Shown piece after piece: positions 1,643 through 28,728 of a stretch of DNA of 64,000 bases. The notes under the pieces were generated by a model. That model did not search any database and was not told where the DNA came from. It saw nothing but the letters and a program-made list of their open reading frames with translations. Source of the stretch: Deltaproteobacteria bacterium (lineage in GTDB: Bacteria > Desulfobacterota > Desulfuromonadia > Desulfuromonadales > JAAYDE01); assembly GCA_012729375.1 (NCBI GenBank), contig JAAYDE010000009.1, positions 1,177-65,176 on the forward strand, written 5' to 3'. The position numbers and the translations under genes were made by a program. The number at the start of each line of letters is the position of its first letter. Position 1 is the first letter of the stretch.

Positions 1643-4600
1643 ATGAAGGATTTCTTTTTCCTGCGGCGGCCGGCACTGGCCATTGTGGTGTCGGTCATCA
1701 TTGTCGTCCTTGGCGCCTTGGCCCTGCGCCAGCTGCCGGTGGCCCAGTATCCGGATCTGGTGCCGCCGGCGGTTTCGGTGACCGCCTTCTATCCCGGCGC
1801 CAGCCCTGAAGTCATTTCCCAGGTTGTCGCCGCGCCCCTGGAGAAGGCCATCACCGGGGCCAAGGATCTCCTCTATCTGCAATCGACCAGTGCCGCCAGC
1901 GGCATGATGGCACTGACCGCGACCTTCAGCCTGGGGGTCGATCCGGAGGTGGCCAGCAGCCGCATCAGTAATCTGGTCCAGGGGGCGCTGGCCCAGCTTC
2001 CGGAGGAAGTCCGCCGCCTCGGGGTCAGCGTCACTGCGGGAACCGGCTCCTTTTTGCAGATCATCACCCTGTCCAGTCCCGACGGCCGCTATGACAGCCT
2101 GTTTCTGAACAACTACGCGGCCCTGAACCTGATCGACGCCCTCAAACGGATTCCCGGCGTGGCCTCCGCCGACTCGCTGATCTCCGAAGAATACTCCATG
2201 CGCGTCTGGTTCGATCCCGCCAAATTGGCGGCTTTCGGCCTCACCCCCCAGGACATCGCCGCGGCCATCCGCGAGCAGAACGCCCAGTACGCCGCCGGCA
2301 CCGTCGGCCTGCAGCCGGCGCCCGACGACCTGAAGATGTCCTGGCTGGTCAGCACCCGGGGCCGCATGGCCACGGAAGAGGAATTCGGCAACATCATCCT
2401 GCGCGTCGACGAACGCAAGGGGATCATGCGCCTGCGCGACGTGGCCAGGGTGGAACTGGGCGCCGCCGACTACAGCGTGCGCAGCAAACTCAACGGCAAG
2501 CCGGTGGCCGGCATCAGCATCTCCCTGACCCCCGGCGCCAACGCTCTGGCGACGGCGGACCAGATCGCCGCCACCATGGCGGAACTGAGCCGGGATTTCC
2601 CTCCCGGCATGGAATACGCCATCCCCTACAACGTCACTACCTTCGTGCGCATTTCCATCGAGGAGGTCATCCAGACCCTCTACGAGGCCATGTTCCTGGT
2701 GGCGCTGGTCATCTTCCTCTTCCTGCAGAACCTCCGCGCCACCCTCATCCCCTGCATCGCCGTTCCCGTTTCCATCATCGGCACCCTGGCGGGGATGTAT
2801 CTGCTCAATTTCTCCATCAACACGCTGACCCTTTTCGGCATGGTGCTGTCCATCGGCGTGGTCGTTGACGACGCCATTCTCGTCCTCGAGAACGTGGAAC
2901 GGCTCATGCGCGAGGAAGGAATTTCCGCCTGGAAGGCGACCTCCCAGGCGATGCGCGAGGTCACCGGACCGGTGATCGCCTCGGTCCTGGTCCTGGCCGC
3001 CGTTTTTGTGCCGGTCTCCTTCATAGGCGGAATGACGGGGGAGATGTTCCGCCAGTTCGGCATCACCATCGCCCTGTCCGTGGCCCTGTCCGGAGTGGTC
3101 GCCCTCACCCTCACCCCGGTCATGTGCTCTTCACTGCTCCGCATCTCCCACGGAGCGCCCCAGGGACGTTTCTTCCGTCTCTTCAACCGCGGTTTCGAAC
3201 TGCTGACCGAAGGTTATATGTGGGCCGTCCGCCTGGTGCTCCGCTATGACCTGCTGGCCGTCCTGGCCATGGTCGTGCTGCTCTGGGGAACCTGGTTCCT
3301 GTTCAAACACATCCCCGCCGGCCTGGCTCCCGATGAGGATCAGGGCTACATCATCGCCGCCGCCATGCTTCCCGACGGAGCGGCCATGCCGCGCACCGAC
3401 CGGGTTCTCGACCGGGTGTCGGCGGCCATGCGCGAAGACTCGGCAGTGGACGCCGTGCTGACCATCGCCGGAAGCGATATTTTCGGCGGCAGCGGCTCCC
3501 TGGGCAGCGCCGGCGCCGCCTTCATCATGCTTCGCCCCTGGGACGAACGCAAAGAGCCCTCCCGCTCCGCCCAGGCGATGGCGGCCAAGGTTTTCGGCAT
3601 CGGCATCACCGACGGCATGGTGGCCGCCTTCAACCCGCCCCCCATCGTCGGCCTCAGCGCCCTGGGCGGCATCGAAGGCTTCTTGCAGAACCATACCGGC
3701 GCCGCCATCGAGGAGATGGCCGAACAGGCGGGCAAACTGGCCGCCGCCGCCGCTTCCCGTCCGGAACTGCGCGGCGTCGGCAGTTCTTTCAGCCTGGGCA
3801 CGCCCAAGATCTATCTGCAGCTGAACCCGGAAAAGGCCAAGCTGATGGATGTGCACATCGGCGATGTCTATCAGGCCCTCAGCGCCACCCTTGCGGGCAG
3901 CTACATCAACGATTTCACCTTGCAGGGCCGGGCCTTCAAGGTGTATATGCAGGCCGAAGCCAAATTCCGCTCCAGCCCCAAAGATCTGGAGGCGATCTAC
4001 GTCCGCAGTCGTACCGGCAACATGATTCCCCTGGCCAACCTGATAACCGCCACGACCACCAGCGGCGCCTTTTCCCTGACCCGTTTCAATGGTCTGCCCG
4101 CCGCCCGTCTCTCCGGCCAGGCCGCTCCAGGCTACAGCAACACCCAGGCCATGGCCGCCATTGAGGAAATCGCCCGCAGCGAACTTCCCACAGGCTACTC
4201 CCTCGCCTGGAGCGGTTCTTCCTACCAGGAGAAAACCAGCGGCGGAACCAACTACACCGTCCTGCTCCTGGGCCTGGGCATCGTCTTTCTCATCCTCGCC
4301 GCCCAATACGAAAGCTGGAGCCTGCCCACCGCCGTCATTCTGGCCGTACCCTTCGCCCTTTTCGGCGCCTTGGCGACAATTTTCCTTGCCGGATACGCCA
4401 ATGATATTTATGTTCAGGTAGCCTTGGTCACCCTGATCGGACTGGCCGTCAAAAACGCCATCCTCATTGTCGAGTTCGCCGCCATCGAGCTGAACAACGG
4501 CAAATCGCCCACGGAGGCGGCGCTGACCGCCGCGGCGCTGCGCTTCCGCCCGATCATGATGACCTCCCTGACCTTCATCCTCGGCTGCATCCCGTTGGTG

Positions 4601-4762
4601 ATTTCCAGCGGTGCCGGCTCGGCCAGCCGCCACGTTCTCGGCAGCAGCATCATCGGAGGGATGGTCGCCGCCTCTCTCATTTCGCCGATCTTTGTGCCCT
4701 GGTTTTTCAAGGTGGTGATGGTTTGCCAAGGCAAGCTGACCAAAACAACGGAGGAAAAATGA
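1643..4762 (+). CDS. RND multidrug/metabolite efflux permease (AcrB/MexB, HAE1-type)
   Basis: 1039 aa with the typical N-terminus FFLRRPALAIVVSVIIVVLG, the conserved VVDDAILVLENVER motif and two large periplasmic loops between TM bundles. Confidence 0.95.
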   Translation: MKDFFFLRRPALAIVVSVIIVVLGALALRQLPVAQYPDLVPPAVSVTAFYPGASPEVISQVVAAPLEKAITGAKDLLYLQSTSAASGMMALTATFSLGVDPEVASSRISNLVQGALAQLPEEVRRLGVSVTAGTGSFLQIITLSSPDGRYDSLFLNNYAALNLIDALKRIPGVASADSLISEEYSMRVWFDPAKLAAFGLTPQDIAAAIREQNAQYAAGTVGLQPAPDDLKMSWLVSTRGRMATEEEFGNIILRVDERKGIMRLRDVARVELGAADYSVRSKLNGKPVAGISISLTPGANALATADQIAATMAELSRDFPPGMEYAIPYNVTTFVRISIEEVIQTLYEAMFLVALVIFLFLQNLRATLIPCIAVPVSIIGTLAGMYLLNFSINTLTLFGMVLSIGVVVDDAILVLENVERLMREEGISAWKATSQAMREVTGPVIASVLVLAAVFVPVSFIGGMTGEMFRQFGITIALSVALSGVVALTLTPVMCSSLLRISHGAPQGRFFRLFNRGFELLTEGYMWAVRLVLRYDLLAVLAMVVLLWGTWFLFKHIPAGLAPDEDQGYIIAAAMLPDGAAMPRTDRVLDRVSAAMREDSAVDAVLTIAGSDIFGGSGSLGSAGAAFIMLRPWDERKEPSRSAQAMAAKVFGIGITDGMVAAFNPPPIVGLSALGGIEGFLQNHTGAAIEEMAEQAGKLAAAAASRPELRGVGSSFSLGTPKIYLQLNPEKAKLMDVHIGDVYQALSATLAGSYINDFTLQGRAFKVYMQAEAKFRSSPKDLEAIYVRSRTGNMIPLANLITATTTSGAFSLTRFNGLPAARLSGQAAPGYSNTQAMAAIEEIARSELPTGYSLAWSGSSYQEKTSGGTNYTVLLLGLGIVFLILAAQYESWSLPTAVILAVPFALFGALATIFLAGYANDIYVQVALVTLIGLAVKNAILIVEFAAIELNNGKSPTEAALTAAALRFRPIMMTSLTFILGCIPLVISSGAGSASRHVLGSSIIGGMVAASLISPIFVPWFFKVVMVCQGKLTKTTEEK

Positions 4763-5607
4763 AGTTTCAAACAATCGCCGTGGTCGGCGCCGGAGTCATG
4801 GGGCGGGGGATCGCCCAGGCTCTGGTGATGAACGGCTTGGATGTCGTTCTCATCGATGTCGATATCGGCGCCCTGGACAAGGCCTGCCTGGAAATCCGTC
4901 AAAGCCTGCGCATGCAGGGGCTTTTCGGCAAGGACAGCGTCGATGTCGAAGCGTGCCTCGCCCATATCCGCTGCACGACGGAACTGGGTCATGCGGCGGC
5001 GGCCGATTTCGTGGTCGAAAACATCACCGAGCAGCCCGACCTCAAAGAACCCCTCTATCGGCGTCTGGATGAAGTCTGCCGCCCCGAGGTCCCTTTCGCC
5101 GCCAACACCTCGGTCATCTCCATCACCCGCATCGGCTCCTGGACACAACGCCCGGACCGGGTCGTCGGCATGCATTTCATGAATCCGGTGCCCCTCAAAC
5201 CGGTAGTCGAGGTCATCCGCGGCCACCACACCAGCGACGACACCCTCGACCGGGCCAGGGCCTTCCTCAAACAGATGAAAAAGCGGGCCGTCGTTGTCAA
5301 CGATCTGCCCGGCTTCGTTTCCAACCGGGTGCTGATGCTCACCGTCAACGAAGCCGTCTGGGTGGTGCAGGACCAGGTCGCTTCCGCGGAGGATGTCGAC
5401 CGGATCTTCAGATCCTGTTTCGGGCACCCCATGGGTCCTCTCGAAACCGGCGACCTCATCGGCCTCGACACGATTCTCTATTCCCTGGAAAGGCTTTTCG
5501 AAAGCTACAATGACCCCAAATTCCGCCCCTGCCCTTTGCTGCGCAAGATGGTTGACGCGGGTCTTTTGGGCCGCAAAAGCGGCAGGGGTTTCTACAATTA
5601 CCAATGA
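4759..5607 (+). CDS. 3-hydroxyacyl-CoA dehydrogenase family protein; FkbK/ZmaG-like candidate glyceryl-ACP dehydrogenase
   Basis: Rossmann motif VVGAGVMGRGIAQ; HADH core HFMNPVPLKPVVEV and ETGDLIGLD. ATG 4759 overlaps the pump stop (ATGA). The ORF-track start at 4723 would overlap the pump by 40 nt. Confidence 0.85.
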   Translation: MKFQTIAVVGAGVMGRGIAQALVMNGLDVVLIDVDIGALDKACLEIRQSLRMQGLFGKDSVDVEACLAHIRCTTELGHAAAADFVVENITEQPDLKEPLYRRLDEVCRPEVPFAANTSVISITRIGSWTQRPDRVVGMHFMNPVPLKPVVEVIRGHHTSDDTLDRARAFLKQMKKRAVVVNDLPGFVSNRVLMLTVNEAVWVVQDQVASAEDVDRIFRSCFGHPMGPLETGDLIGLDTILYSLERLFESYNDPKFRPCPLLRKMVDAGLLGRKSGRGFYNYQ

Positions 5608-5647
5608 TCCGGCTGCCGCTGAAGCCGGAGCAGAAAAAGGATGAGGA

Positions 5648-5893
5648 ATGGCTGAGGAAATCCGTGAAAAAATTCGGGATTTTGTGCTCAAATATGTCAG
5701 GGATGAGGAACTGGCCGATGACGAGAACATGTTCGACCTCGGCTACGTCAACTCCCTCTTTGCCATGCAGTTGGTCATGTTCGTCGAAAAGGAATTCCAG
5801 CTGACCCTCGGCCGCGACAGCATCCGTCTGGCCAATTTCCAGTCCATTGACGCCATCGTCGCCCTGATTGAAGGGCAGCGGCAGGGGGCCTGA
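5648..5893 (+). CDS. Free-standing acyl carrier protein (FkbJ/ZmaD-like)
   Basis: 81 aa and acidic. Phosphopantetheine-attachment pattern GYVNSLFAMQL (Ser codon 5753-5755). Sits between two dehydrogenase genes and fkbH. Confidence 0.8.
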   Translation: MAEEIREKIRDFVLKYVRDEELADDENMFDLGYVNSLFAMQLVMFVEKEFQLTLGRDSIRLANFQSIDAIVALIEGQRQGA

Positions 5894-5894
5894 T

Positions 5895-7031
5895 ATGGAT
5901 CGGGCCGCCTGCATGCGGGAGTGGATCGACGCCTTTGTTTTCCCCCAGGCCAACGCCTGGGAGGAAAGACAACAGCTGCCCCCCGCCATCCTTGACGACT
6001 TCGCTTGCCGCGGCTGGTTCGGTGCCGCTCTCCCGCCGCGCTGGGGGGGGCTCGGTTGCGACAGCGAAACCCTGGCCCGTTTCTGTGCCGAAATGGCCCG
6101 GGGCAGCGTCTCCCTGCTGAGCATCTTCACTGTCCACAACATGGTCTGCCAAGCCCTGTTGCGCTGGGGGGCCGCCGACCAACAGGCGGTCTGGCTGAGA
6201 CAGCTGGCCTCCGGCGCGGTGCGGGCCGCTTTCGCCCTGACCGAACCGGAGTTCGGCAGCGAAGCGACGGGGATTCGCTGCCGGGTGGCTCGAAACGGAG
6301 ATGAGCTGATCGTGAACGGCGCCAAAAAATGGATCTCCGGGTCCTGCCACGCCCAGCTTTTCCTGGTCATGGCGCGGGCCAAGGAAGAGGGGCTGATGGC
6401 CCTTCTGGTTCCCGCCGACACTGCCGGCCTGCGAATCACGCCGATGCCCGATCTTTTGGGCTTCCGCGCCGCCGGCATCGCCCGCCTCGACTTCGCCGAC
6501 TGCCGCCTGCCCGCCTCCGCCCTGATCGGCGCGCCGGGCGCAGGCTTCACCTTCGTCGCCGCCCATGCCCTGGATCACGGCCGCTTCACCGTCGCTTGCG
6601 GCTGCCTCGGGGTTATCGAAGCCTGTCTGAGGGCCAGCGTCGCCTACGCCAACCAGCGCACCCAGTTCGGCCAGCCGTTGCGCCGCCACCAGCTCATCCA
6701 GGCGCTGGTCGCCGACATGGCCACCGACCTGGAGGCGGCGCGGGCGCTGGTTGAGCGGGCCGCCAAACAGCGCGACAGCCAGGCCGCGGAGTCGATCACG
6801 GCCACCACCATCGCCAAATATTTCTGCTCGCGGGCGGCGCTGCGTGCAGCCACGGACGCCCTGCAGATCCACGGCGGCAACGGCTGTTCTCCCGAGTATC
6901 CTGTGATGCGCTACTACCGCGACGCCAAGATCTGCGAAATCATCGAGGGAAGTTCCCAGATGCAGCAGCTGATGATAGCCAGCCACGCGTTCATGAGGGA
7001 ACGTCCCCAGCGGAGACGCCGCCATGGCTAA
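5895..7031 (+). CDS. Acyl-CoA dehydrogenase family protein; FkbI/ZmaE-like
   Basis: ACAD-type segments LTEPEFGSEA, QRTQFGQPL and C-terminal CEIIEGSSQMQQL. ATG 5895 lies 1 nt after the ACP stop. Confidence 0.85.
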   Translation: MDRAACMREWIDAFVFPQANAWEERQQLPPAILDDFACRGWFGAALPPRWGGLGCDSETLARFCAEMARGSVSLLSIFTVHNMVCQALLRWGAADQQAVWLRQLASGAVRAAFALTEPEFGSEATGIRCRVARNGDELIVNGAKKWISGSCHAQLFLVMARAKEEGLMALLVPADTAGLRITPMPDLLGFRAAGIARLDFADCRLPASALIGAPGAGFTFVAAHALDHGRFTVACGCLGVIEACLRASVAYANQRTQFGQPLRRHQLIQALVADMATDLEAARALVERAAKQRDSQAAESITATTIAKYFCSRAALRAATDALQIHGGNGCSPEYPVMRYYRDAKICEIIEGSSQMQQLMIASHAFMRERPQRRRRHG

Positions 7032-8052
7032 GACCATCAAGTGCCTGGTCTGGGATCTCGACGACACCCTGTGGGACGGGATCCTTCTCGAAGGAGGCGG
7101 CAACCGCCTCCGCGAAGGGGTTCGCGAGGTTTTGGAAGCCCTCGACCAAAGGGGCATTCTCCATTCCATCGCCAGCCGCAACGACCATGATCACGCCATG
7201 GAGCGGCTGGCCCGCTTCGGCCTCGAGTACTACTTCCTCTATCCGCAGATCCATTTCGGCATCAAAAGCGCTTCGCTGAGCACCATTGCCAGGAAACTCA
7301 ACATCGGCATCGATACCTTCGCCTTCATCGACGACCAGGCCTTCGAACGGGAGGAGGTGAAGCAGGCGCTACCCGAGGTGCTGTGCCTTGATGCCGCGGA
7401 CCTGGCGGCGCTTCCGGATCTGCCCCGTTTCATGCCCCGTTTCATCACCGAGGATTCGGCCCAGAGACGCCGCCTGTACCTGACCGACATCAGCCGCGCC
7501 AAGGCCGAAGAGAACTTCACCGGCCCGGCCGAGGCCTTCCTGGCCACCCTCGGCATGCGGTTCACCATCGCGTCCGTCAGCGACGGGGACCTGCAGCGGG
7601 CCGTCGATCTGACCGAACGCACCCACCAGCTGAACGCCACCGGGCTTACCTTCAGCCATGACGAGTTGGACGCCCTGCGCCTTTCTTCCAACCACCTGCT
7701 GTTCATCAGCAGCCTCGAAGACAAATTCGGGCCGTACGGCAAGATCGGCCTGGCCCTGGTGGAAAAAGGGACCGAGGCGTGGACCGTCAAACTGCTGCTG
7801 ATGTCATGCCGGGTCATGTCCCGTGGGGTCGGTTCGGTCATGCTCAACCACATTGTCCGCGAGGCGTCCCGGGCCGGCAAAAAACTGCGCGCCGATTTCG
7901 TCGAAACCGACCGCAACCGGATGATGTACGTCACCTATAAATTCGCCGGCTTCGAGGAAATGCAACGGTTCGGCAACCGCTCGGTGCTGGAATACCAGGG
8001 AGACGGCCGGGTCAGTTTCCCTGCCTATCTCGATGTGGTGATCCAGGGGTGA
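7024..8052 (+). CDS. FkbH-like HAD-superfamily phosphatase / glyceryl-S-ACP synthase
   Basis: HAD motif I DLDDT (7054-7068). FkbH-type C-terminal domain with conserved Cys in LLMSCRVMSRGVG (Cys codon 7807-7809). 8-nt overlap with the ACAD gene. Confidence 0.85.
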   Translation: MAKTIKCLVWDLDDTLWDGILLEGGGNRLREGVREVLEALDQRGILHSIASRNDHDHAMERLARFGLEYYFLYPQIHFGIKSASLSTIARKLNIGIDTFAFIDDQAFEREEVKQALPEVLCLDAADLAALPDLPRFMPRFITEDSAQRRRLYLTDISRAKAEENFTGPAEAFLATLGMRFTIASVSDGDLQRAVDLTERTHQLNATGLTFSHDELDALRLSSNHLLFISSLEDKFGPYGKIGLALVEKGTEAWTVKLLLMSCRVMSRGVGSVMLNHIVREASRAGKKLRADFVETDRNRMMYVTYKFAGFEEMQRFGNRSVLEYQGDGRVSFPAYLDVVIQG

Positions 8053-8234: not shown

Positions 8235-11200
8235 ATGGATAAAATGGCTTTCGTATTTTCCGGGATCGGCACCCAGTGGCCGGAAATGGGCCGGGATCTT
8301 TGGGAAACCGATGCCGATTTCGCCGCCGGCTTCGACGCCTTCGACACCCCTTTCCGCCGACTCTCCGGATGGTCGGTGGCGGACGTCCTCTACCGGAACC
8401 CCGCCGACATCGGACCGGCCCAATGGGGCCACCCCTGCGTCCTGGCTGTGGAATTCGGCCTCTTCCAGGTCCTCCAGCACCACGGATTCCACCCAGACCT
8501 CATCCTCGGCCACAGCGGCGGGGAAGTCGCCGCCGCCTGGGCGGCGGGCATCCTCAGACCCTCGGAAGCGGCCCTTCTCGCCTGGCGCCACTCGCTGCTT
8601 CTGGAACAGGCGGCCGGCGGCGGGAAAATGCTCTTCATCGCCCTTCCCGCCGCCGAAGTGGAAACACTGCTGGAACCCTACACCGGGCACATCACCATCG
8701 CCGCCGTCAACTCGCCCCGCGGCACCGTTTGCGGCGGCGAGGAGGCCCTCCTTCAGGAATTGGCCGCGGCTCAGCCCCCGGATACCTTCTGCCGCCTGCT
8801 GCCGGTGGACGTCCCCTTTCACACCGGAGCCATCGAACCGTTTCTGGAGAGTTTCGAAATGGCCCTGGTCCCTTTGAATCCTCGCCGACCGCGGTTGCCC
8901 ATTGTTTCCACCCTCCATGGCGGCCCCTGGCGGACGGGGGACTTTGGCGGCGCTTACTGGCGGCGCCACGTCAGGGAACCGGTACTTTTCGCGGCGGCGC
9001 TGCAATGCGCTATGGACCAGGGCTGCCGGCGCTTCGTCGAACTGTCCCCCCACGCCGTGCTCCAGGCTTCCATCCAGGAAACCGCCGCCGCCCGGGGAAT
9101 CAGGGTGATCAGCTGCGGCCTCATGGCCCGGGACCTGGAGGGCTCGGTCACCCTTGCCCAGGGCCTCGATCTGCTGCGATCCTGGCAGAACGCGGGAGCC
9201 CCCTCGGCCGGGGTTTCAGCGGGGGATGATAGGCGCGAGGATGAGCAGAAGAGCCCTGGCACCCAGCGCCGGCTGCGGGAGTGGATCCGCACCGATTTGG
9301 AAAAACTTCTCCCCGGCCAGAACCTGGCGGAAAACGCCCCTTTTCAAAGCCTCGGCGTCACTTCCCTGACCGCCCTGCGCCTCTGTGCCGCCCTGACGGA
9401 GCGCCTCGGCGTGCCGGTACCGGCGTCGGCCGTATTCAATTATCCCGACATCGGTTCCCTGGCCAACCACCTCGCCGCCCTTGCCCAGGGAACTTCTTCC
9501 CGAAACGCCGCCGGCGCTCAGGATGACAACCCCGCCGCCGCCCGGGAACCCCTGGCCGTCATCGGCGTGTCCTGCCGCTTCCCCGGCGGCATCAACGACA
9601 TGGATGGGTTGTGGAATTTTCTCGCCGCGGGGCGCGACGCCGTAGTGCCCATTCCCGCGGAGCGCTGGGACCGGGAGCGCTATTACAGCGCCGACCGCCA
9701 GGCCCCGGGCAAGATGTACACCAGGGAGGGGGCTTTCCTCGCCGCGCCCAACCCGCCCATCGAGAATTTCGACGCCTTTTTCTTCAACATCTCGGCGCGG
9801 GAGGCCCTGCAGCTCGACCCCCAGCAGAGGCTGCTCCTGGAGCTCAGCTGGGAGGCCTTTGAGAACGGGGCCATCGATCCCTTTGCCTGGCGAGGTAAAG
9901 AGGTCGGTGTCTTTGTGGCCATGACCAACAACGAATACAGCCACGCCCACCGCGAGTCCTACCACCGCGAGCGCATCGACGCCTATTCCCTCACCGGCAC
10001 GACGATGAGCGGCGCCTGCGGCCGGCTCTCCTATTTTTACGGCTTCGAAGGCCCCTGCTTTACCGTGGACACCGCCTGTTCCTCGGGCATCGTCGCCCTC
10101 CACGCCGCCTGTCAGAGCCTGCGCCGCGGCGAGTCGGCAATGGCCCTGGTGGCGAGCGTTACCCTGATGCTGACCCCCGATCTGCACATCTGCTTCAGCA
10201 AGCTGGGGGCGATTAGCCCCGATGGGCGCAGCAAGGCCTTTGACGACGGCGCCGACGGCTACGGACGGGGCGAAGGCGGAGCGGCGCTCGTCCTCAAGCG
10301 ACTCAGCGACGCGGAGCGGGATGGCGACCCGATCCTCGGCCTGATCCGCGGCACCGCCATCAACCAGGACGGCAAAAGCAACGGCCTCACCTCCCCCAAC
10401 GGCCGCGCCCAGCAAAAGGTCATCGCCGGCGCCCTGGCCGACGCGGGGCTGCTTGCCGAGGAAGTGGACTACGTGGAAGCCCACGGCACCGGCACCGCCC
10501 TCGGCGATCTGATCGAGCTGGAAGCTCTGGCCGACGCCTACGGCGCCCGGCGCCGGCAGCCGTTGCGGGTCGGCTCGGTGAAGGCCAACATCGGCCATCT
10601 GGAGCCCGCCGCGGCCCTCGCCTCCCTGCTGAAACTGCTGCTCTGCTTCCGTCACGGCGCCATCCCGGCCAACATCCACATCAAAACCCCCAACAGCCGC
10701 TTTGACTGGCACAAGCGCCTCCTTCAGGCGCCGACTTCCCTGGTCCCCTGGGATAGTGACAGGCGGCGCCGCGCCGGCATGAGCGCCTTCGGCTTTTCCG
10801 GCGTCAACGGCCACGCCATCGTCGAGGAATACAGCCGCCCGGAACCGGCTGCCGACGGCGCGCCGTCGGCCTTTCTGCTCCTGCTGTCCGCCAAAAGCGC
10901 CGATGCCCTTCGTCAGCTCGCCCGCGCCTGCGCCGACAAGGTGGAGCAGATGACGCCCGCCATGCTGGCCGGGCTGTGCCGTTCCGCCGCCTGCCGGCAC
11001 AGCCATTTCCCCTGGCGAATCGCCATCACTGCCACCGGCCCGGCCGACATGGCGGCGCAACTGCGCCAGGCCAACCCCGCGGCCGCTTCCTCCCCGCCTT
11101 CCTCCCTGGCCCTCCTTTTCACCGGCCAAGGTTCCCAGTACCCCGGGATGGGGGAAGAACTTTACCGGAACTATCCCGTTTTCCGTGATGCCATCGATCA

Positions 11201-14200
11201 TTGCGCGCGCATTCTGGAGAAGCAAGGGATCGATCTGATCGCCCTCCTCTATGGCGCAACCCCGGCCCAGGAACTGGCGCGGACCGCCCATGCCCAGCCC
11301 GCTATTGTCGCCGTCTCCTATGCCCTGTGGCGCCTGTGGGAAGCCTGCGGGCTCCGTTTCGAGCACACCGCCGGCCACAGTATCGGGGAGTATCCGGCGG
11401 CCGTCGCCGCCGGCATCATGACCCTGGAAGAGATGCTGCGTCTGGCGGCGGCCCGCGGTCGGTGCATGGAGGATGCCCCGCCCGGCGCCATGGCGGCGGT
11501 TTTCAGCGGCGCCAGCGAAATCCACGAGGTGCTGAAAAAGCACCCGCAAATCACCTTGGCCGCCGTCAACGCTCCGGCGAGCCTCACCCTTGCCGGGGCC
11601 GAGGACGCCATGGACGGCCTTCTTGAAGAACTGGCCAAGCGCGGCATCGGCCACAAAAGGCTTCATGTCGCCCATGCCTTCCACTCCCCGGCCATGGAGA
11701 GAGCCGCTTCCCGTTTCCTCGCCCACCTCCAGGACGTCGCCCTGTCCCCGCCGACCGGGATGGCCTTCGTCTCCACCGTGACCGGCGCCGCCGAGGAGAG
11801 TAGGGTTTGCCGCCGTGATTACTGGGCCGGCCAGATCCTGGCTCCGGTGCGCTTCGCCGCTGCGGTAACGGCCCTGGCCCGGGAAAGCGCCCTGGCGGTC
11901 GAGGCCGGCCCTTCCGCTTCCCTATCCGGATTGGTGAAACAGTGTTCCGACTCCTGGCGCTCGATTCCCTCCCTGGCTCCCGGCCAGGGGAGCCTCTTTT
12001 CCCTGCTCACGGCGGCGGGGCACCTGTACCAGGAAGGCCTCGATCTGCGCTGGCAGGAACTCTTCGCCCCTTTCAACCCCCAAGTCGTGCCCCTGCCCCC
12101 CTACCCCTTTCAGCGGGAGCGGTTCTGGATGCCGGTGCAGACCGATCCGCCGGAGGGCTTCGATCGCCGCCGTTCCGTCCTCGGCCGCCGGCTGTCGACC
12201 CCGGCCCTCGGCGCCACCGCCGTCTTCGAAACGACCTTCTCCGATGCCGGACCGCTCTTCGTCCAGGAACATGTCATCTGCGGCAAGGCCATCAGCCCGG
12301 CGGCCGGCCACCTGGCCATGCTGCTGGCCGCGGCCCGGGAGCTGTGGGGGGAGTCCGCCTGCGAACTGCACAACGTCGACTTCCTCCACCCTCTGGTGGT
12401 GCAGCCGGGGGACCGGCGCCTGGTGCAGGTCATCGTCGACAATCCCGGCGCCGCCGCCAGCGCTTTGCGCCTGGTCAGCCGCGGCGACGGCGAGGAACTC
12501 TGGCTGGTGCACTGCACCGCCACCCTGAAACGGGATCCCTCGGCGGCGCCCCTGCCGGCCTTTCAACCAGGCGAGGTTTTTGCCGAGGAACAGGCGCCGG
12601 AATCATTCTACGAACGGTTCCTCAGCCACGGCTATGAGATCGGCCCCGGTTTCCGCCGCATCGACCGCATCAGTATCCGCGACGGGGAATCCCTCTGTCG
12701 GGTGCAGGCCCGACGCGGCGACTCCTGTGAGGATGGGCATGTCATCTACCCCGGCGCGCTGGATTCCATCCTGCAGACCATCCTGCCTCCCTTTTTCCAG
12801 GAGTTGGCCAAAACCATGGCCGCCGAGGAATCGCTGCTGATCCCGCTGAGCATGGAACGACTCCGCCTGTGGCGCCAGGTCCCCGGGGAGGTTTGGTGCC
12901 ATTCCCGCGCCCGGCGCAGCCTGCGGGACGCCGCCCTGGTGGGGGAAACCCTGGCGGTGGACGGAGAGGGCAACCCCATTGTCCAGCTCGCCGGCCTGAC
13001 CTTCCGCATGACCGACCGCGCCACCCTCTACCGGCAACTCAACAGCGATCCCCTGGAACTGGTGTATGCCCAGCATTGGGAAGAGGCTGACATGCCCCCG
13101 GCCAAGGGTGAAAACCCGTTATTGGTGTTCCCTGTCGGCGACGGCGTGCTGGCCTCAGCCCTGGCCACCCTCCCCGGCACGGCAGGCATTCCCGCCGCTT
13201 TGCAGAGCGCCGCCCTGGCCGACTGGCTAAAGCGGAACCTTCCCGGTGCCGGCGGCGCCGAACTCCTGGTCGCCCACAGCCGGAAAACCAGGGAGGCAAA
13301 GGAGATCCTCGGCGCCGAGGCCGGAGCATGGGAGGAGGCGGACTGCCGACGTTTTCTGGAGCTGCTGCAGGCGGTGAGCCGGACGCCCCTCAATGTCCGC
13401 CTCCATCTGCTCACATCCGGGATCATGGCGGTGCAAAAGGGGGACCCCTGTCGGCCGGCCGGGGCGGGATTGTGGGGGATGGCGGCCAGCTTCGCCCTCG
13501 AACATCCCCACCTGTGGGGGCATGCCATCGATATGCCTTCCGACCTGGGAAAAGACCACCAAGAGGATCTCCAGCAGGCGCTGCACCTGTGCCGCTCCGC
13601 CGCGGCGGCGGAAACAAGCGCGCTGCGCCAGGGGGTTCTTTACCGGTGCCGTCTGCACCGGGCCAAAGGCAAGGTGGAAGCCGCCCGCCCCTGGCGGGGG
13701 ACCCACCTGATTAGCGGCGGTAACGGCGCTCTGGGCCTGCAGACAGCCCGCTGGCTGGCCGAGCAGGGGGCCGAGGCGGTAGCCCTCCTCTCCCGCTCGG
13801 GAATCCCCCCGGCGGCGCAAGACCAGGTGACGGCCCTGCGCCGTTCGGGAGTGCAGGTCATCGTCCTGATCGGCGATGTCTCCAAGGGCGAGGACGTCGA
13901 CCGGGCGCTGCAACAGATCAGACTTGAGGCGCCACCTTTGCGGGGCGTTTTCCATGCCGCCGGCGTCCTCGACGACGGCGTCGTCGCCGACCTGACCGCG
14001 GCAAGGCTGAGTGCCGTTCTGGCACCGAAAATCCGCGGTGCCGTCCACCTCCATCGGGCGACCTTGGGGGTGGATCTCGACCATTTCGTCCTTTACTCAT
14101 CGGCGGGCACCTTCCTCGGCAGCCAGGGCCAGAGCAACTACAACGCCGCCAACCATTTCCTCAACGCCCTGGCCCGCCACCGCCAGGCCCTGGGCCTGCC

Positions 14201-14870
14201 CGCCGCCGCCATCTGCTGGGGTCCCTGGGCGGACGGGGGGATGGCCGCCGAATCGGCACGGCACAGCGACCATCTGTCGCGGCAAGGCATTCTCCCCATC
14301 CGCGGCAAGGAAGCCTTTGCCGCCTTCCAGGCCGGAAACTCCCTTGACTTTTGTGAATTCGCGGTGATGATGATCGACTGGCAGCGCTTTGCCGCGCGCC
14401 GCCGCGACCTGGGGCAGGCCATCGACGGGCGGGGATATTTTCAGTCCCTGGCGGCCGCAAAACAGGCGGACAAGTCGCGGACCGCACCGCCCCAGGCCGT
14501 CCTCGGCAAAAACGATGATGCCGCGGCGCTGCTGACGGGATTGCGCCGCATCGCGGGCAATCTCCTCGGGCTTTCCGAGGTGGCCGCCATCGCCGCCGAC
14601 AAACCCCTGATGGAGCAGGGTTTCGACTCCCTGCTGGCGGTGGAATTCCGCAACATCGTTGCCCGCGAACTGGAAAGGACGATTCCCGTTTCCATGATAT
14701 TCGAATACCCGACCCTGGAAAAGATGGCCGGCTGGCTCTGCGCCGGCGAAAATTCGGCCCCGCAGGCCACCGCTCCGGCCGACCGGCGTACCCCGGCCAC
14801 CGGCCCCAGAAAGGACGGCGCCGATGAGCTGCTGGCGGATATCGACCACCTTCTCGGGAGCGACGCCTGA
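8235..14870 (+). CDS. Type I polyketide synthase, AT(L)-ACP(L)-KS-AT-DH-KR-ACP
   Basis: AT(L) GHSGGE (Ser 8514-8516) and VPFH (8811-8822). ACP(L) LGVTSL (Ser 9363-9365). KS DTACSSG (Cys 10077-10079), EAHGTGT, NIGHLE. AT GHSIGEY (Ser 11379-11381) and HAFH (11673-11684). DH HVICGKAISP (His 12270-12272) plus DSILQ. KR GGNGALG (13716-13736), LDD, SNYNAAN. ACP GFDSLL (Ser 14628-14630). Confidence 0.95.
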   Translation: MDKMAFVFSGIGTQWPEMGRDLWETDADFAAGFDAFDTPFRRLSGWSVADVLYRNPADIGPAQWGHPCVLAVEFGLFQVLQHHGFHPDLILGHSGGEVAAAWAAGILRPSEAALLAWRHSLLLEQAAGGGKMLFIALPAAEVETLLEPYTGHITIAAVNSPRGTVCGGEEALLQELAAAQPPDTFCRLLPVDVPFHTGAIEPFLESFEMALVPLNPRRPRLPIVSTLHGGPWRTGDFGGAYWRRHVREPVLFAAALQCAMDQGCRRFVELSPHAVLQASIQETAAARGIRVISCGLMARDLEGSVTLAQGLDLLRSWQNAGAPSAGVSAGDDRREDEQKSPGTQRRLREWIRTDLEKLLPGQNLAENAPFQSLGVTSLTALRLCAALTERLGVPVPASAVFNYPDIGSLANHLAALAQGTSSRNAAGAQDDNPAAAREPLAVIGVSCRFPGGINDMDGLWNFLAAGRDAVVPIPAERWDRERYYSADRQAPGKMYTREGAFLAAPNPPIENFDAFFFNISAREALQLDPQQRLLLELSWEAFENGAIDPFAWRGKEVGVFVAMTNNEYSHAHRESYHRERIDAYSLTGTTMSGACGRLSYFYGFEGPCFTVDTACSSGIVALHAACQSLRRGESAMALVASVTLMLTPDLHICFSKLGAISPDGRSKAFDDGADGYGRGEGGAALVLKRLSDAERDGDPILGLIRGTAINQDGKSNGLTSPNGRAQQKVIAGALADAGLLAEEVDYVEAHGTGTALGDLIELEALADAYGARRRQPLRVGSVKANIGHLEPAAALASLLKLLLCFRHGAIPANIHIKTPNSRFDWHKRLLQAPTSLVPWDSDRRRRAGMSAFGFSGVNGHAIVEEYSRPEPAADGAPSAFLLLLSAKSADALRQLARACADKVEQMTPAMLAGLCRSAACRHSHFPWRIAITATGPADMAAQLRQANPAAASSPPSSLALLFTGQGSQYPGMGEELYRNYPVFRDAIDHCARILEKQGIDLIALLYGATPAQELARTAHAQPAIVAVSYALWRLWEACGLRFEHTAGHSIGEYPAAVAAGIMTLEEMLRLAAARGRCMEDAPPGAMAAVFSGASEIHEVLKKHPQITLAAVNAPASLTLAGAEDAMDGLLEELAKRGIGHKRLHVAHAFHSPAMERAASRFLAHLQDVALSPPTGMAFVSTVTGAAEESRVCRRDYWAGQILAPVRFAAAVTALARESALAVEAGPSASLSGLVKQCSDSWRSIPSLAPGQGSLFSLLTAAGHLYQEGLDLRWQELFAPFNPQVVPLPPYPFQRERFWMPVQTDPPEGFDRRRSVLGRRLSTPALGATAVFETTFSDAGPLFVQEHVICGKAISPAAGHLAMLLAAARELWGESACELHNVDFLHPLVVQPGDRRLVQVIVDNPGAAASALRLVSRGDGEELWLVHCTATLKRDPSAAPLPAFQPGEVFAEEQAPESFYERFLSHGYEIGPGFRRIDRISIRDGESLCRVQARRGDSCEDGHVIYPGALDSILQTILPPFFQELAKTMAAEESLLIPLSMERLRLWRQVPGEVWCHSRARRSLRDAALVGETLAVDGEGNPIVQLAGLTFRMTDRATLYRQLNSDPLELVYAQHWEEADMPPAKGENPLLVFPVGDGVLASALATLPGTAGIPAALQSAALADWLKRNLPGAGGAELLVAHSRKTREAKEILGAEAGAWEEADCRRFLELLQAVSRTPLNVRLHLLTSGIMAVQKGDPCRPAGAGLWGMAASFALEHPHLWGHAIDMPSDLGKDHQEDLQQALHLCRSAAAAETSALRQGVLYRCRLHRAKGKVEAARPWRGTHLISGGNGALGLQTARWLAEQGAEAVALLSRSGIPPAAQDQVTALRRSGVQVIVLIGDVSKGEDVDRALQQIRLEAPPLRGVFHAAGVLDDGVVADLTAARLSAVLAPKIRGAVHLHRATLGVDLDHFVLYSSAGTFLGSQGQSNYNAANHFLNALARHRQALGLPAAAICWGPWADGGMAAESARHSDHLSRQGILPIRGKEAFAAFQAGNSLDFCEFAVMMIDWQRFAARRRDLGQAIDGRGYFQSLAAAKQADKSRTAPPQAVLGKNDDAAALLTGLRRIAGNLLGLSEVAAIAADKPLMEQGFDSLLAVEFRNIVARELERTIPVSMIFEYPTLEKMAGWLCAGENSAPQATAPADRRTPATGPRKDGADELLADIDHLLGSDA

Positions 14871-14873
14871 CCG

Positions 14874-17831
14874 ATGGACATGGCTTTGGAACAGCGCTAC
14901 AAAGAGATCCTGCTCAAGGCTCGGGCCACCATCCAGCGGCTGCAGCAGCAGGTCGACGCCTTTCACGAACCGGTGGCGATCATCGGCATGGCCTGCCTTT
15001 TCCCCGGTGACAACGGCGGCGACGCCGACACCCCCGATCTTTTCGGCCGGCTGCTCGCCGCAGGTTACGACGCCGTCGCCGCCATTCCCCCCGACCGCGC
15101 CCGCTGGTGGCGCTCCCGCCATGGCGAAAAGGAAAAACCGCAAAGCCCCGGCCTCGACCGGGCCGCCCTGCTGAAACAGGACATCTTCTCCTTCGACCGG
15201 GAACTTTTCGGCCTGACGCCGGCCGAGGCGCGCATGACCGATCCCCAGCACCGCCTGCTCCTCGAGCTCTCCTGGCTGGCGCTCCTCGACGCCGGGCTGT
15301 CACCGGAAAGCCTGCGCGGCTCCGACACCGGCGTTTTTGTCGGCAAAAGCGGCACCGACTTTCTTTTCGACATTCTCGGGACAGGGAGAAGTTCCGCCGA
15401 CGACCCCTATACCCTGACCGGCAACATGCACAGCGCCCTGGCGGGGCGCATCTCCCACTTCCATGACTGGCACGGCCCTTCCCTCTCCTTCGAAACCGCC
15501 TGCTCCACCGCCCTGGCCGCGGTGATGGCGGCGGTCACCAGCCTGCGCTCCGGGGAATGTTCCCTGGCCCTGGCCGGCGGGGTCAATCTGCTCCTCGGGC
15601 CGACCCCCAGTCACTGGCTCAACAGCATGCATTCCCTGGCTGCCGACGGCCGCTGCAAGGCCTTCGGCGCCGGCGCCGACGGCTTCGGCCGCGGCGAGGG
15701 GGGCGGCGCCGTAATCCTGCAACGGCTGGCGGACGCCCGGCGCGCCGGCAACCGCATCCACGCCCTGATCCTCGGCGGCGCCGTCGGCTCCGATGGGAAA
15801 AGCGGCAGCTTCACCGCCCCCAACAGCAAGGGGCAGCGCCTGGTAATGACCCGCGCCCTGGCCGATGCCGGCGTCGCTCCGGCAGAGGTCGCCTTTGTCG
15901 AAACCCACGGCACCGGCACCCCTCTCGGCGATCCCATCGAGGCGGAGAGCCTCGCCCAAGTTTACGGCCCCCGGGAGGAGAAACTGCTCATCGGCTCGGT
16001 CAAAAGCAATATCGGCCATCTGGAAGGGGCCTCCGGCATAGCGGCACTGATCAAGGCGGTGCTCGCCGTCCGTGACGGCCGCATCCCCAAGACCCTTCAC
16101 AGCGAGCCCCCCAATCCGCTCCTCGACTGGGACTCCCTGCCCATAAAACCCAACCGCCACACTCTGGCCTGGCCCGCCGTTTACGAACGGCGCATCGCCG
16201 CCATCGACAGCTTCGCCATCGCCGGCACCCTGGTTCACCTGCTGGTGGCCGAATTCGTTCCCCCGCCCCGGCCGGAAAATGACCAAAGGACCACGGCCGC
16301 CCCCCAGATCCTGACCCTGTCCGCCCGCAGCCGCGAAGATCTTCAAGTCATGGCCGACGACTGCCTGCGCCGACTTGAGGAGGGAAACCCATTGGCCGAG
16401 ATGTGCCTGGCCTGCGCCCTGGCCAGGCCCCACGAGGAGGAGCGCCTGGCGCTGACCGCCGCCGACGCCGCGGAAGCTATCCAGGGCCTGCAGGCCTTCC
16501 GCGCCGGCAAAAGCCAGCGCAACCTCGTCTGCGGCCGCCGCCAATCCGGCCCGCCGCCGGTCCTGTTCCTGTTCAGCGGTCAGGGATCCCAACTGGCGAC
16601 CATGGGCCGGGAGCTTTACGCGGCCTTCCCCTCCTTCCGCCAGACCCTGGACCGCTGCGAGGAAGTGGCGGCGCCACGCCTCGGCGCCTCCCTGCGGGAC
16701 ATCCTTTTCGCCGCCGACGAGCCCCGCCTCCATCAGACACGCTTCACCCAGCCGGCCATCTACGCCCATCAGGCGGCCCTGGCTGACCTCTGTCGGGAAC
16801 TGGGCATCGGTCCCGCAGCGGTCCTCGGCCACAGCATCGGCGAATACGCCGCCGCCTACGCCGCCGGCGTCTTCACTCTGGAAACGGGCCTGGAAATCAC
16901 CCTCAAGCGGGGCGAACTGGTCTCCGGGATCACCACGGCCGGGGGCATGGCGGCGGTTCTCGCCGGTGAGACGGATGTCCTGCCGACGCTGGACGCCTTG
17001 CCGGGAGTGTCCGTCGCCGCCGTCAACGGCGACGCCACGGTCACCATCGCCGGGGTGCTGAAAGAGGTGGAGGAGGCCTGCCTCAGGCTCCGGGAACAGG
17101 GGCTGGAGAGCCGCCCGCTGCCGGTTTCCCATGCCTTTCACTGCCCCCTGGTCGAGCCGCTGCTGGATGACTTCCGCGCCTTTCTGCGCCGCTTCGACTT
17201 CCGGAAACCGGCCGTTCCCTTCCTTTCGGCCTGCCGCGGCGCCTATCTTCCCGCAGAAACCGACTGGCCCGATTATTTCTGCGCCCAGACCCGGCAGCCG
17301 GTGCGCTTCGCCGACGCCGTCAAGCGGGCGGAGACCGCCACCTTCCTGGAACTGGGGGCGCAGCCGACCCTCACCGCCTACGGCCGCCAGATCCGCGGCG
17401 ACGCGACCTGGCTCTTCACCCAGAACGGCGCCCTCGGCCTGCGCCCATTGGCCCAGGCCCTGGCCCGGCTCTACGTGGCAGGCTACCCGATCGGCCGCGG
17501 CTGGCCCTTCAGCGGGGAATGGCGGCCCGAGGCGGCACCCCGCTACCGGTTTAGGCGGGAACAGCTTCTGCCCCCCCCCTGGGCCGCCGAACCACAGGAC
17601 CAAGCCGTGCCGCCGCCTCCGGAAACCTTTTTGGCCCCTCCTCCCGCGATCCGCACCTTGGCGGACAGGGAAGACCCCGCGGTACAGCTGGCCATCATGC
17701 AGTGCGATATCTTCCGCCAAGTGTGCGCCATGCAGAATTCCCTGCTCGCCGGGGGCGCGGGCAACGCCGGGCCGACGCCGATGCAAGGCGGGCGTGACAA
17801 AAATCCGGAACCGGATGTCTTAACGGGATAA
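14874..17831 (+). CDS. Type I polyketide synthase, KS-AT didomain with a Pro-rich C-terminal tail (no ACP, no TE)
   Basis: KS ETACSTAL (Cys 15501-15503), ETHGTGT, NIGHLEGASG. AT LFSGQGSQ, GHSIGEY (Ser 16833-16835), SHAFH (17130-17141). The last ~100 aa are Pro/Ala-rich and lack a DSL carrier motif. Confidence 0.9.
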   Translation: MDMALEQRYKEILLKARATIQRLQQQVDAFHEPVAIIGMACLFPGDNGGDADTPDLFGRLLAAGYDAVAAIPPDRARWWRSRHGEKEKPQSPGLDRAALLKQDIFSFDRELFGLTPAEARMTDPQHRLLLELSWLALLDAGLSPESLRGSDTGVFVGKSGTDFLFDILGTGRSSADDPYTLTGNMHSALAGRISHFHDWHGPSLSFETACSTALAAVMAAVTSLRSGECSLALAGGVNLLLGPTPSHWLNSMHSLAADGRCKAFGAGADGFGRGEGGGAVILQRLADARRAGNRIHALILGGAVGSDGKSGSFTAPNSKGQRLVMTRALADAGVAPAEVAFVETHGTGTPLGDPIEAESLAQVYGPREEKLLIGSVKSNIGHLEGASGIAALIKAVLAVRDGRIPKTLHSEPPNPLLDWDSLPIKPNRHTLAWPAVYERRIAAIDSFAIAGTLVHLLVAEFVPPPRPENDQRTTAAPQILTLSARSREDLQVMADDCLRRLEEGNPLAEMCLACALARPHEEERLALTAADAAEAIQGLQAFRAGKSQRNLVCGRRQSGPPPVLFLFSGQGSQLATMGRELYAAFPSFRQTLDRCEEVAAPRLGASLRDILFAADEPRLHQTRFTQPAIYAHQAALADLCRELGIGPAAVLGHSIGEYAAAYAAGVFTLETGLEITLKRGELVSGITTAGGMAAVLAGETDVLPTLDALPGVSVAAVNGDATVTIAGVLKEVEEACLRLREQGLESRPLPVSHAFHCPLVEPLLDDFRAFLRRFDFRKPAVPFLSACRGAYLPAETDWPDYFCAQTRQPVRFADAVKRAETATFLELGAQPTLTAYGRQIRGDATWLFTQNGALGLRPLAQALARLYVAGYPIGRGWPFSGEWRPEAAPRYRFRREQLLPPPWAAEPQDQAVPPPPETFLAPPPAIRTLADREDPAVQLAIMQCDIFRQVCAMQNSLLAGGAGNAGPTPMQGGRDKNPEPDVLTG

Positions 17832-21728: not shown

Positions 21729-21756
21729 ACAGATGCGTTTAGAAAATCACCTTTCC

Positions 21757-22500
21757 TCAGTAGGCGGCACGGCAATCGATATTCCGCTGGCGGCATTCCT
21801 CCTCGATGCGGCGCCGCATGGCGGAAAAATACCCGTCGCTGTTCATTTCCCGCCAGCCGTAGCGGGCATAAATCGCGTCGGCGTAATGGTAATTCATCCG
21901 GTCGAGGATGAGATAATCCACCTTCCCCGCCAGGATGGCCACCAGGTTTTCCCCACCGGGCAGCAAAGGCGCGATCATCACGTAGGTGGCGATACCTTTA
22001 TCGTGGAGTTCCGCGACGGCCTTCAACCGGGCGCCGATGGGCGGCGCCTTCGGCTCGAAGATTTGGCGGATGCGGTCGTCGGCGGTGGTGATCGACAGGC
22101 CGACCTGCCAGCTTTCCGCTTTCTTGAACAGATCCATATCCCGCAGCACCAGCGGGGAGCGGGTCTGGATGACCACCGGCCAGCGGTTTTCGGCGAGGAT
22201 TTCGAGGCATTGCCGGGTCAGCCGGTATCGGGCTTCCAGCGGCTGATAGGGGTCGCAGACACCGCTGACCCAGACTTCCCCTTTTTTCTTTCTGGTGATC
22301 TCTTTGCGCAGCAGCTCGGGGGCGTTGATCTTGACATCGACGAAATCCCCCCACGGTTCCCGATGACCGGTGAACCGCTTCATGGAGCGGGCGTAACAGT
22401 AGCTGCAGCCATGCTGGCATCCGACATAGGGGTTGATGACGTAGTCATAAACCTGGGATGAAGAGAGGATGGTTTTGGAGCGGATCTCGGCGATTTTCAT
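21757..22500 (-). CDS. Radical SAM protein, SplB/COG1533-like
   Basis: CxxxCxxC cluster motif CQHGCSYC near the N-terminus. 247 aa. Convergent with the diguanylate cyclase gene. Confidence 0.8.
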   Translation of the reverse strand: MKIAEIRSKTILSSSQVYDYVINPYVGCQHGCSYCYARSMKRFTGHREPWGDFVDVKINAPELLRKEITRKKKGEVWVSGVCDPYQPLEARYRLTRQCLEILAENRWPVVIQTRSPLVLRDMDLFKKAESWQVGLSITTADDRIRQIFEPKAPPIGARLKAVAELHDKGIATYVMIAPLLPGGENLVAILAGKVDYLILDRMNYHYADAIYARYGWREMNSDGYFSAMRRRIEEECRQRNIDCRAAY

Positions 22501-28561: not shown

Positions 28562-28728
28562 GGGATCTCCTTTCTGCCGTTTCCTTCCCGCCAGAGCAGA
28601 TCGAAAAGCGGGTGAGGAAGCGACCGCTTCTGTGGTGAAATATTTTTCATCCAGTATATCACCCTCGGCAGACTTGAAAACCGCACTCGAAAAGCACAAT
28701 TTCACGGAGCCGCCCGGTACCTCCCTCA

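Follow-up and report, generated by a model that had tools for sequence, protein, structure and literature searches.

In tetromadurin biosynthesis, an FkbH-like protein forms glyceryl-acyl carrier protein (ACP), dehydrogenases convert this to 2-hydroxy-3-oxopropionyl-ACP and hydroxymalonyl-ACP, and an O-methyltransferase (O-MT) yields methoxymalonyl-ACP; the genes mad11-14 lie in the order dehydrogenase, ACP, dehydrogenase, FkbH (PMC7489565). The glycerate-utilisation operon of tetronate pathways comprises genes for FkbH-like, ACP, FabH-like, Agg4-like and Agg5-like proteins (PMC7489565). Embedded O-MTs are found in CndE of chondrochloren and PelG of pellasoren, where the four-gene module has no free-standing O-MT gene (PMC6395733). 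Zwittermicin, from Bacillus cereus/thuringiensis, involves ZmaN, ZmaD, ZmaG, ZmaE and the acyltransferase (AT) domain of ZmaA in a hybrid polyketide synthase-nonribosomal peptide synthetase (PKS-NRPS) pathway that has no O-MT. Here we describe four genes at nt 4759-8052 of a 64,000-nt window, the whole stretch of DNA that was analysed, from contig JAAYDE010000009.1 of an uncultured deltaproteobacterium. Our overall explanation, which we hold with a probability of about 0.65 on the basis of sequence, is that these genes form an unmethylated hydroxymalonyl-ACP cassette that would feed a hybrid PKS-NRPS line. What is unusual is the setting of the cassette, a compact PKS-NRPS family with no recognisable partner AT and with an in-line aminotransferase.

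The biosynthetic genes of the window occupy the + strand of nt 1-21728, a region that is almost wholly coding. Within it, the cassette consists of four intact open reading frames that together span exactly nt 4759-8052:

4759-5607, + strand: FkbK/ZmaG-type 3-hydroxyacyl-dehydrogenase (HCDH), 282 aa; Pfam 3HCDH_N 1.3e-54, 3HCDH 5.7e-35
5648-5893, + strand: free-standing carrier protein (ACP) of the FkbJ/ZmaD type, 81 aa; PP-binding 1.4e-06
5895-7031, + strand: FkbI/ZmaE-type acyl-ACP dehydrogenase of the acyl-CoA dehydrogenase (ACAD) fold, 378 aa; Acyl-CoA_dh_N, _M and _1, all three matched
7024-8052, + strand: FkbH/ZmaN-type glyceryl-ACP synthase (FkbH), 342 aa; TIGR01686

As an earlier note on this DNA had described, the four genes lie back to back. 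The HCDH start codon overlaps the stop codon of the preceding RND pump gene (ATGA), and the ACAD and FkbH genes share 8 nt. The FkbH protein passed the profile check proposed in that note, scoring 267.5 bits against TIGR01686 (FkbH domain; NCBIfam cut-off 146.65) and 60.9 bits against TIGR01681 (HAD-IIIC; cut-off 35.75). HAD motif I, DLDDT, is formed by residues 11-15 (nt 7054-7068), and the catalytic-Cys motif MSCRVM contains Cys262 (nt 7801-7818). Both motifs had been noticed before, and their residues D11, D13, T15 and C262 are kept by 97% or more of the 77 homologues compared, among them ZmaN. A PDB search with FkbH found no solved relative beyond the HAD half of the protein. The phosphopantetheine Ser36 of the ACP lies within GYVNSL (nt 5741-5758), an instance of the commonest form of this motif (G[FY]VNS[LM], shown by 72 of the 92 loci where an ACP was matched), and the ten residues GYVNSLFAMQ are identical in ZmaD.

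The cassette proteins were compared with those of the zwittermicin cluster on the Bacillus thuringiensis plasmid pBMB400. Identity was 51% for FkbH and ZmaN, 55% for HCDH and ZmaG, and 39% for the ACP and ZmaD; ACAD was 42% identical to ZmaI and 36% to ZmaE. FkbH was 59-62% identical to the FkbH proteins of Streptomyces cassettes. Among solved structures, FkbI (1R2J) is one of the close relatives of ACAD (206 bits). However, ordinary acyl-CoA dehydrogenases score as high, and PDB ranking did not separate FkbI-type from ordinary enzymes for either ACAD or HCDH. Because these ordinary enzymes match equally well, ACAD was assigned by synteny rather than similarity, and for HCDH too the assignment depends on synteny. 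The identities, together with the conserved gene order, uphold the relationship of both dehydrogenases to the zwittermicin set on which the earlier proposal depended.

To place the cassette among its homologues, 80 FkbH-cassette loci were fetched with FkbH by scanning one genome per species; the phyla represented include Actinomycetota, Bacillota, Chloroflexota, Acidobacteriota, Myxococcota and Cyanobacteria. The order HCDH-ACP-ACAD-FkbH and its spacing recur in most of these loci, across many phyla, and this recurrence is far beyond chance. Measured against two relatives, with dS near saturation, dN/dS was 0.12-0.15 for HCDH, 0.23-0.25 for ACAD and 0.12-0.25 for the cassette overall, compared with 0.31-0.33 for the neighbouring PKS protein PksB. 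The cassette genes are thus under purifying selection, and more strongly so than PksB. They are also 99-100% identical on six contigs from several metagenomes. As judged by homology, the genes at nt 4759-8052 are a complete, conserved FkbH/ZmaN-type pathway, of a kind that is known and fairly common.

The locus shares the order of mad11-mad14 with the five-gene methoxymalonyl subclusters (FkbG-K of FK520; Mad11-15), but the fifth gene, for the O-MT, is absent. In its place, FkbH is followed by a spacer of 182 nt, the one gap in the + strand genes that cover nt 1-21728, and then by the gene for PksA. The likeness to zwittermicin extends to the four protein types, the lack of an O-MT and the hybrid PKS-NRPS context. 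The two clusters differ in that zmaN lies 15 kb from zmaD-G, whereas the genes of the window are contiguous, and in that zwittermicin has GYSxG-type ATs (ZmaA-AT and ZmaF), which the window cluster lacks. The aminomalonyl branch of zwittermicin (ZmaH/I/J) has no counterpart; neither a ZmaJ-type seryl-AMP ligase nor a free-standing adenylation enzyme is encoded in nt 1-21728, FkbH being present instead. Like the tetronate operon, the locus pairs an enzyme of the FkbH family with a dedicated carrier protein to make glyceryl-ACP. However, the cluster gene products include no FabH-like ketosynthase, Agg4-like acyltransferase or Agg5-like dehydratase, both oxidising dehydrogenases are present, and FkbH is short, at 342 aa; tetronate FkbH-type enzymes are typically about twice that length. 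The tetronate context that the earlier note had named as the contrary case was therefore not found.

The same note had reported no methyltransferase (MT) gene in nt 1-21728, and this was confirmed. Pfam identified no MT family in any gene product of this region or in the domains of PksA and PksB, and six-frame motif scans of the region were negative. The scan for family-3 (FkbG-type) O-MTs was run without a positive control, because the Streptomyces canus gene after FkbH, tried as an FkbG reference, was dropped for want of a Pfam match. MTs were also absent from the related clusters L010-L016, L024 and L094-L097 (at least eight other genomes, of different classes), and from the parts of the NRPS that were read, namely the first 1193 aa in the source genome and ~4500/~5400 aa in relatives. 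In lacking an MT domain in PksA, PksB and these NRPS parts, the locus differs from the CndE/PelG type. Since no O-MT gene or domain was found in the cluster, the unit most likely stays unmethylated. Given the identity of the cassette and the lack of an O-MT in cis or as a PKS domain, a pathway that would stop at hydroxymalonyl-ACP, as first suggested, is the best-supported reading.

The further claim that hydroxymalonyl is the rarer of the two units held in part. A SAM-motif protein or domain occurs within 10 kb in only ~8 of the 80 cassette loci; one has a free O-MT adjoining FkbH (L044, Methyltransf_2), and in ~6 the SAM motif lies inside a megasynthase. Similarly, a survey of biosynthetic gene clusters (BGCs) counted 73 BGCs whose four-gene module lacks an O-MT and 28 with the module of five genes, and cautioned that the O-MT can be a domain inside a megasynthase (PMC6395733). 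Cassettes without an O-MT are thus common in genomes, and the present case is less exceptional than first claimed; rarity applies to characterised products only. To our knowledge, few such products use hydroxymalonyl-ACP, zwittermicin being the one examined here.

The cassette forms an operon-like block within a larger + strand cluster in the order outer-membrane efflux protein (OEP), membrane-fusion protein (MFP), RND pump, cassette, PksA, PksB, ABC exporter, thioesterase (TE). The other genes of nt 1-21728 encode the following proteins, whose domains include ketosynthase (KS), dehydratase (DH) and ketoreductase (KR):

1-455, + strand: OEP, 3' end of the gene, whose start is to the left of the window; Pfam OEP 4.5e-10; full gene at L098 8544-10004
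452-1636, + strand: RND-pump MFP; HlyD_3 / HlyD_D23; kept beside the cluster in relatives
1643-4762, + strand: RND (AcrB-type) inner-membrane pump; ACR_tran 1044.8 bits; 76% identical in Desulfoplanes formicivorans
8235-14870, + strand: PksA, AT_L-ACP_L-KS-AT-DH-KR-ACP by Pfam; a loading didomain and one fully processed extension module
14874-17831, + strand: PksB, KS-AT without a carrier domain; Pfam KS and AT only
17891-19543, + strand: ABC exporter of the cyclic-peptide-export type; ABC_tran; TIGR01194 253 bits, below cut-off; position shared with L096 and L012
19540-20274, + strand: free-standing TE with GHSMGG; PF00975 2e-24; ATG overlaps the ABC stop codon
20271-21728, + strand: HAMP-GGDEF diguanylate cyclase; GGDEF 1.5e-47; start overlaps the TE stop codon

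PksA carries GHSGGE at aa 92 in its loading AT (AT_L), the active-site Cys of its KS in DTACSS at aa 615, and GHSIGEY/HAFH in its extender AT. Its DH has the active-type motifs HxxxGxxxxP and DxxxQ, and its KR, with LDD, is of the B type. Both ketosynthases, of PksA and PksB, have the Cys-His-His set. The lack of a carrier domain in PksB is shared by five relatives that were scanned and by ~20 further family proteins with precomputed domain lists. The C terminus of PksB forms an amphipathic helix (nt 17685-17735, QLAIMQCDIFRQVCAMQ; consensus QLAIxQCExFRxVCxMQ) that is kept in 8 of 8 family members aligned and could serve in docking to the NRPS. The free-standing TE is 51% identical to its D. 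formicivorans counterpart; the NRPS of the cluster family has its own TE domain (seen in L095), and the free-standing enzyme is probably a type II editing thioesterase.

The hybrid PKS-NRPS cluster is only partly contained in the window, since its NRPS lies further to the left. This NRPS was found on L098, a contig that matches the window at 100% identity over 11.6 kb (subtracting 9549 from an L098 position gives the window position). At L098 1-3581 on the - strand, an NRPS gene begins with ACP, class III aminotransferase (Aminotran_3), condensation (C) and adenylation (A) domains, as read over its first 1193 aa; no monooxygenase domain follows the aminotransferase. The gene, which is cut by contig ends and encodes at least 3351 aa, begins ~6 kb to the left of the first base of the window. 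An NRPS starting with ACP and aminotransferase is also present in L093, L094, L095 and L097. In relatives, the remainder has the form (C-A-PCP)n-TE, PCP being a peptidyl carrier protein, and the parts read contained no KS, AT or MT. Two genes lie between the NRPS and the window, both on the - strand, encoding an autotransporter of 1231 aa whose passenger domain has a beta-lactamase (serine hydrolase) fold (L098 3593-7288) and a DUF697 protein (L098 7526-8287). Both accompany the cluster family, recurring at L097 13774-18023, where they are placed between TE and NRPS, at L011 1-1188 and at L012 104-1858; they might serve in resistance or in maturing or processing the product.

Given these domain compositions, the ACP-less PksB most likely pairs with the N-terminal ACP of the NRPS. 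We had also considered that PksB condenses directly onto the cassette ACP to give a small 2-hydroxy-3-keto acid or hydroxyketone. This was dropped when the NRPS with its N-terminal ACP and aminotransferase was found in relatives and then in the source genome. Likewise, a division of the family into clusters with and without an NRPS proved to be an artefact of locus ends, the NRPS here lying on the other side and on the opposite strand.

The three ATs were examined for the substrates they might select. In AT_L (nt 8235-9164), GHSGG is invariant among the family members checked, as is a His that replaces the carboxylate-binding Arg117 of FabD. Since Arg117 of FabD binds the substrate carboxylate, the His points to a non-carboxylated starter. 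The ATs of the two extension modules, AT1 and AT2, read GHSIG and retain the Arg, and their third RXR position is occupied by Lys or Arg. In comparisons with solved structures, none of the three matched the AT of ZmaA (4QBU) closely. ATs for ACP-bound extenders are marked by GYSxG, as in ZmaA/ZmaF, or by hydrophobic residues at the RXR positions (PMC4207774). Elsewhere, the partner of the cassette is a cis-AT with GYSxG or a ZmaF-like discrete AT directly after FkbH.

GYSxG replaces GHSxG in the cassette-adjacent ATs of many phyla, and these ATs form one clade (L009, L023, L033, L035, L040, L045, L048, L051 and others). Most of them still read HAFH at the position regarded as the specificity motif. 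HAFH in AT2 is therefore compatible with hydroxymalonyl, and GYS may signal ACP-bound extenders in genome mining better than the YASH/HAFH position does.

Of the two extension modules, the second is the likelier point of entry, because module 1, with its active DH and B-type KR, would dehydrate a 2-hydroxy unit to an enol, whereas module 2 leads into an aminotransferase that would yield a 3-amino-2-hydroxyacyl unit. A suggestive hint in the same direction comes from the single case of D. formicivorans, whose cluster has lost the cassette and in which the sole change in a specificity motif is that of AT2, from HAFH to LAFH.

By homology, FkbH would dephosphorylate 1,3-bisphosphoglycerate and pass the glyceryl group via Cys262 to the 81-aa carrier. 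HCDH would oxidise C3 of glyceryl-ACP to the aldehyde, giving 2-hydroxy-3-oxopropionyl-ACP, and ACAD would carry out the second oxidation to hydroxymalonyl-ACP, to be incorporated as a glycolate (2-hydroxy) extender. PksA is predicted to load a non-carboxylated starter and extend it once with KR and DH processing. PksB (KS-AT) would then act on the N-terminal ACP of the NRPS, hydroxymalonyl entering at this second module, and the class III aminotransferase could convert the resulting 2-hydroxy-3-oxoacyl thioester to a 3-amino-2-hydroxyacyl unit. Judging from the domain count in relatives, this unit would be extended by ~4 amino acids, released by the NRPS TE and exported. Collectively, these features suggest a lipopeptide with a 3-amino-2-hydroxyacyl head group.

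Mycosubtilin MycA and microcystin McyE have KS-AT-ACP-aminotransferase-C junctions, found in lines for beta-amino lipopeptides and peptides. The present cluster resembles them in that an ACP, an aminotransferase of class III and a C domain come after a PKS module, an arrangement that implies transfer of a beta-amino acyl unit to the NRPS; it differs in that the module is split over two proteins encoded on opposite strands. In cyanobacterial products with 3-amino-2-hydroxy residues, the 2-hydroxyl has been attributed to a monooxygenase domain beside the aminotransferase (bioRxiv 10.64898/2026.06.02.729631). The NRPS start found here has no such domain, and a hydroxymalonyl extender could supply the 2-hydroxyl instead. 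The full proposal, in which hydroxymalonyl is condensed at the split module of PksB and the NRPS ACP and then aminated, giving an oxygenase-free 3-amino-2-hydroxyacyl head group by means of an AT type not so far linked to ACP-bound extenders, is put forward tentatively, as a possibility with odds well below even.

Related clusters were found in Desulfovibrionales-like bacteria (a lineage of sulfate reducers), Ca. Adiutrix, Ca. Accumulibacter, a betaproteobacterial metagenome-assembled genome (isolate tag FACS...) and Latescibacteria, with lineages as placed by their records; most members are uncultured. In the cultured relative D. formicivorans (L093; GCA_001748225.1, BDFE01000015.1), PksA directly follows the RND gene and the whole cassette has been deleted. 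The 200-nt spacer between the RND and PksA genes encodes, at L093 3251-3400, a 51-residue C-terminal remnant of FkbH, colinear with residues 288-338 (41% identity; E 1e-8 in a small search) and ending in YLDV and a stop codon. This bacterium retains PksA, PksB, the TE, a phosphopantetheinyl transferase (PPTase) and the NRPS; the AT_L motifs and the HAFH of AT1 are kept. The change of AT2 to LAFH is suggestive of a link to cassette loss, in one case. Another variant of the family is encoded on a metagenome contig (L101 3392-12901), whose PksA and PksB homologues are 46-48% identical to those of the window; in the ~3.4 kb upstream and 10 kb downstream of this pair there was no match to the cassette, TE, ABC exporter or NRPS. 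A metagenome scan with PksB as a single protein found nothing, while an alignment scan gave at least one family member (L101) among the matches listed and otherwise generic KS patterns. A literature search for Desulfovibrio clusters of the present type found no paper.

Several of these observations weigh against hydroxymalonyl as an extender of this line. ACAD is slightly nearer to ZmaI, of the aminomalonyl branch, than to ZmaE. AT_L, AT1 and AT2 show neither the GYSxG nor the hydrophobic RXR marks of ATs for ACP-bound extenders, they fall outside both the GYS clade and the ZmaF-like clade of cassette-adjacent ATs, and AT1 and AT2 are most similar to malonyl-CoA ATs, for example CurL. In D. 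formicivorans, PksA, PksB and the NRPS persist with no cassette at the locus, and the assembly line is therefore not strictly cassette-dependent. This loss, the malonyl-specific look of AT1 and AT2, and the PksA-PksB pair of L101 with no cassette match in its locus would all be accommodated if the cassette were a decoupled accessory on its way out and the line ran on malonyl-CoA alone. In the window, however, the four genes are intact with their catalytic residues in place, they abut or overlap one another and the end of the pump gene, they have lower dN/dS values than PksB, and they are nearly identical across the six metagenome contigs. We consider decoupling very unlikely. The absence of an AT of the usual cassette-partner type would also fit a cassette that makes the starter, a use that the earlier note had allowed for, with AT_L moving glyceryl or glycolyl from the free ACP to ACP_L. 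The invariant GHSGG and His of AT_L suit a substrate without a free carboxylate, and F-C-R at its RXR positions, in the window and the closest relatives, recalls the hydrophobic-Cys-Arg of cassette-adjacent ATs. However, F-C-R is not kept across the family (NTR, AAR, RAR, KAR, STR), and GHSGG and the His persist in D. formicivorans, whose cluster has lost the cassette. For a glyceryl starter, a complete set of enzymes for two oxidations would serve no purpose, and there is no KSQ or other decarboxylase to make glycolyl from hydroxymalonyl. A starter role is thus disfavoured and seems unlikely.

A methylated unit would also contradict the proposed hydroxymalonyl extender. Methoxymalonyl-ACP could arise if an O-MT were encoded elsewhere, whether outside the window, in the remaining NRPS, of which only the first 1193 aa were read in the source genome, or 7 kb past the cluster, where a class I SAM-dependent enzyme is encoded at 28729-29475 (- strand). 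This is the nearest MT in the window and the sole one found between nt 1 and ~44 kb, and O-MTs can hide in megasynthases, as in chondrochloren CndE (PMC6395733). However, the enzyme has generic Methyltransf_25/31 matches only, with all NCBIfam matches far below cut-off. Its gene adjoins one for a hemerythrin-domain protein (28022-28732), stands among unrelated genes with housekeeping genes just beyond, and has no counterpart beside the related cluster L096. Because the related clusters and the NRPS sequence read in relatives (~4500 of ~5400 aa) likewise contain no MT, we regard methylation in trans as quite unlikely. Hydroxymalonyl-ACP, unmethylated and used as an extender, remains the preferred reading.

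The right-hand border of the cluster was also inspected. The GGDEF gene is unmatched at the equivalent position of every related locus, and its membership of the cluster is therefore doubtful; a look-up of the protein gave no record. Directly after it lies a radical SAM gene of the PA0069 / 'mobile pair protein B' type (21757-22500, - strand), shadowed by a + strand open reading frame (21733-22461) with no family match. The last cluster genes end at ~21.7 kb. Further on, a tRNA-Leu(UAA) gene (30013-30099, - strand) accompanies a housekeeping block on the - strand at ~30.6-43.8 kb (biotin ligase, accC/accB, peptidase, aroQ, aroK/aroB, aroC and pilQPONM). Rfam, tRNA and promoter/terminator scans gave nothing relevant inside the cluster.

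The cassette of this uncultured deltaproteobacterium adds an example from outside the Firmicutes and actinomycetes. As the cluster has no ZmaA-type AT, it puts the generality of published AT signatures for ACP-bound extenders to the test. Cultured D. formicivorans represents a natural knockout, and setting its product beside the product of a cluster that has the cassette would show what the cassette contributes. If the proposed head group is correct, it would be made independently of O2, as an alternative to the aminotransferase and monooxygenase pair credited with this task in cyanobacterial lines. Should the unit enter at the aminotransferase module, the family would have a new O2-free route to alpha-hydroxy-beta-amino acids, which form the pharmacophore of both bestatin and the microginins.

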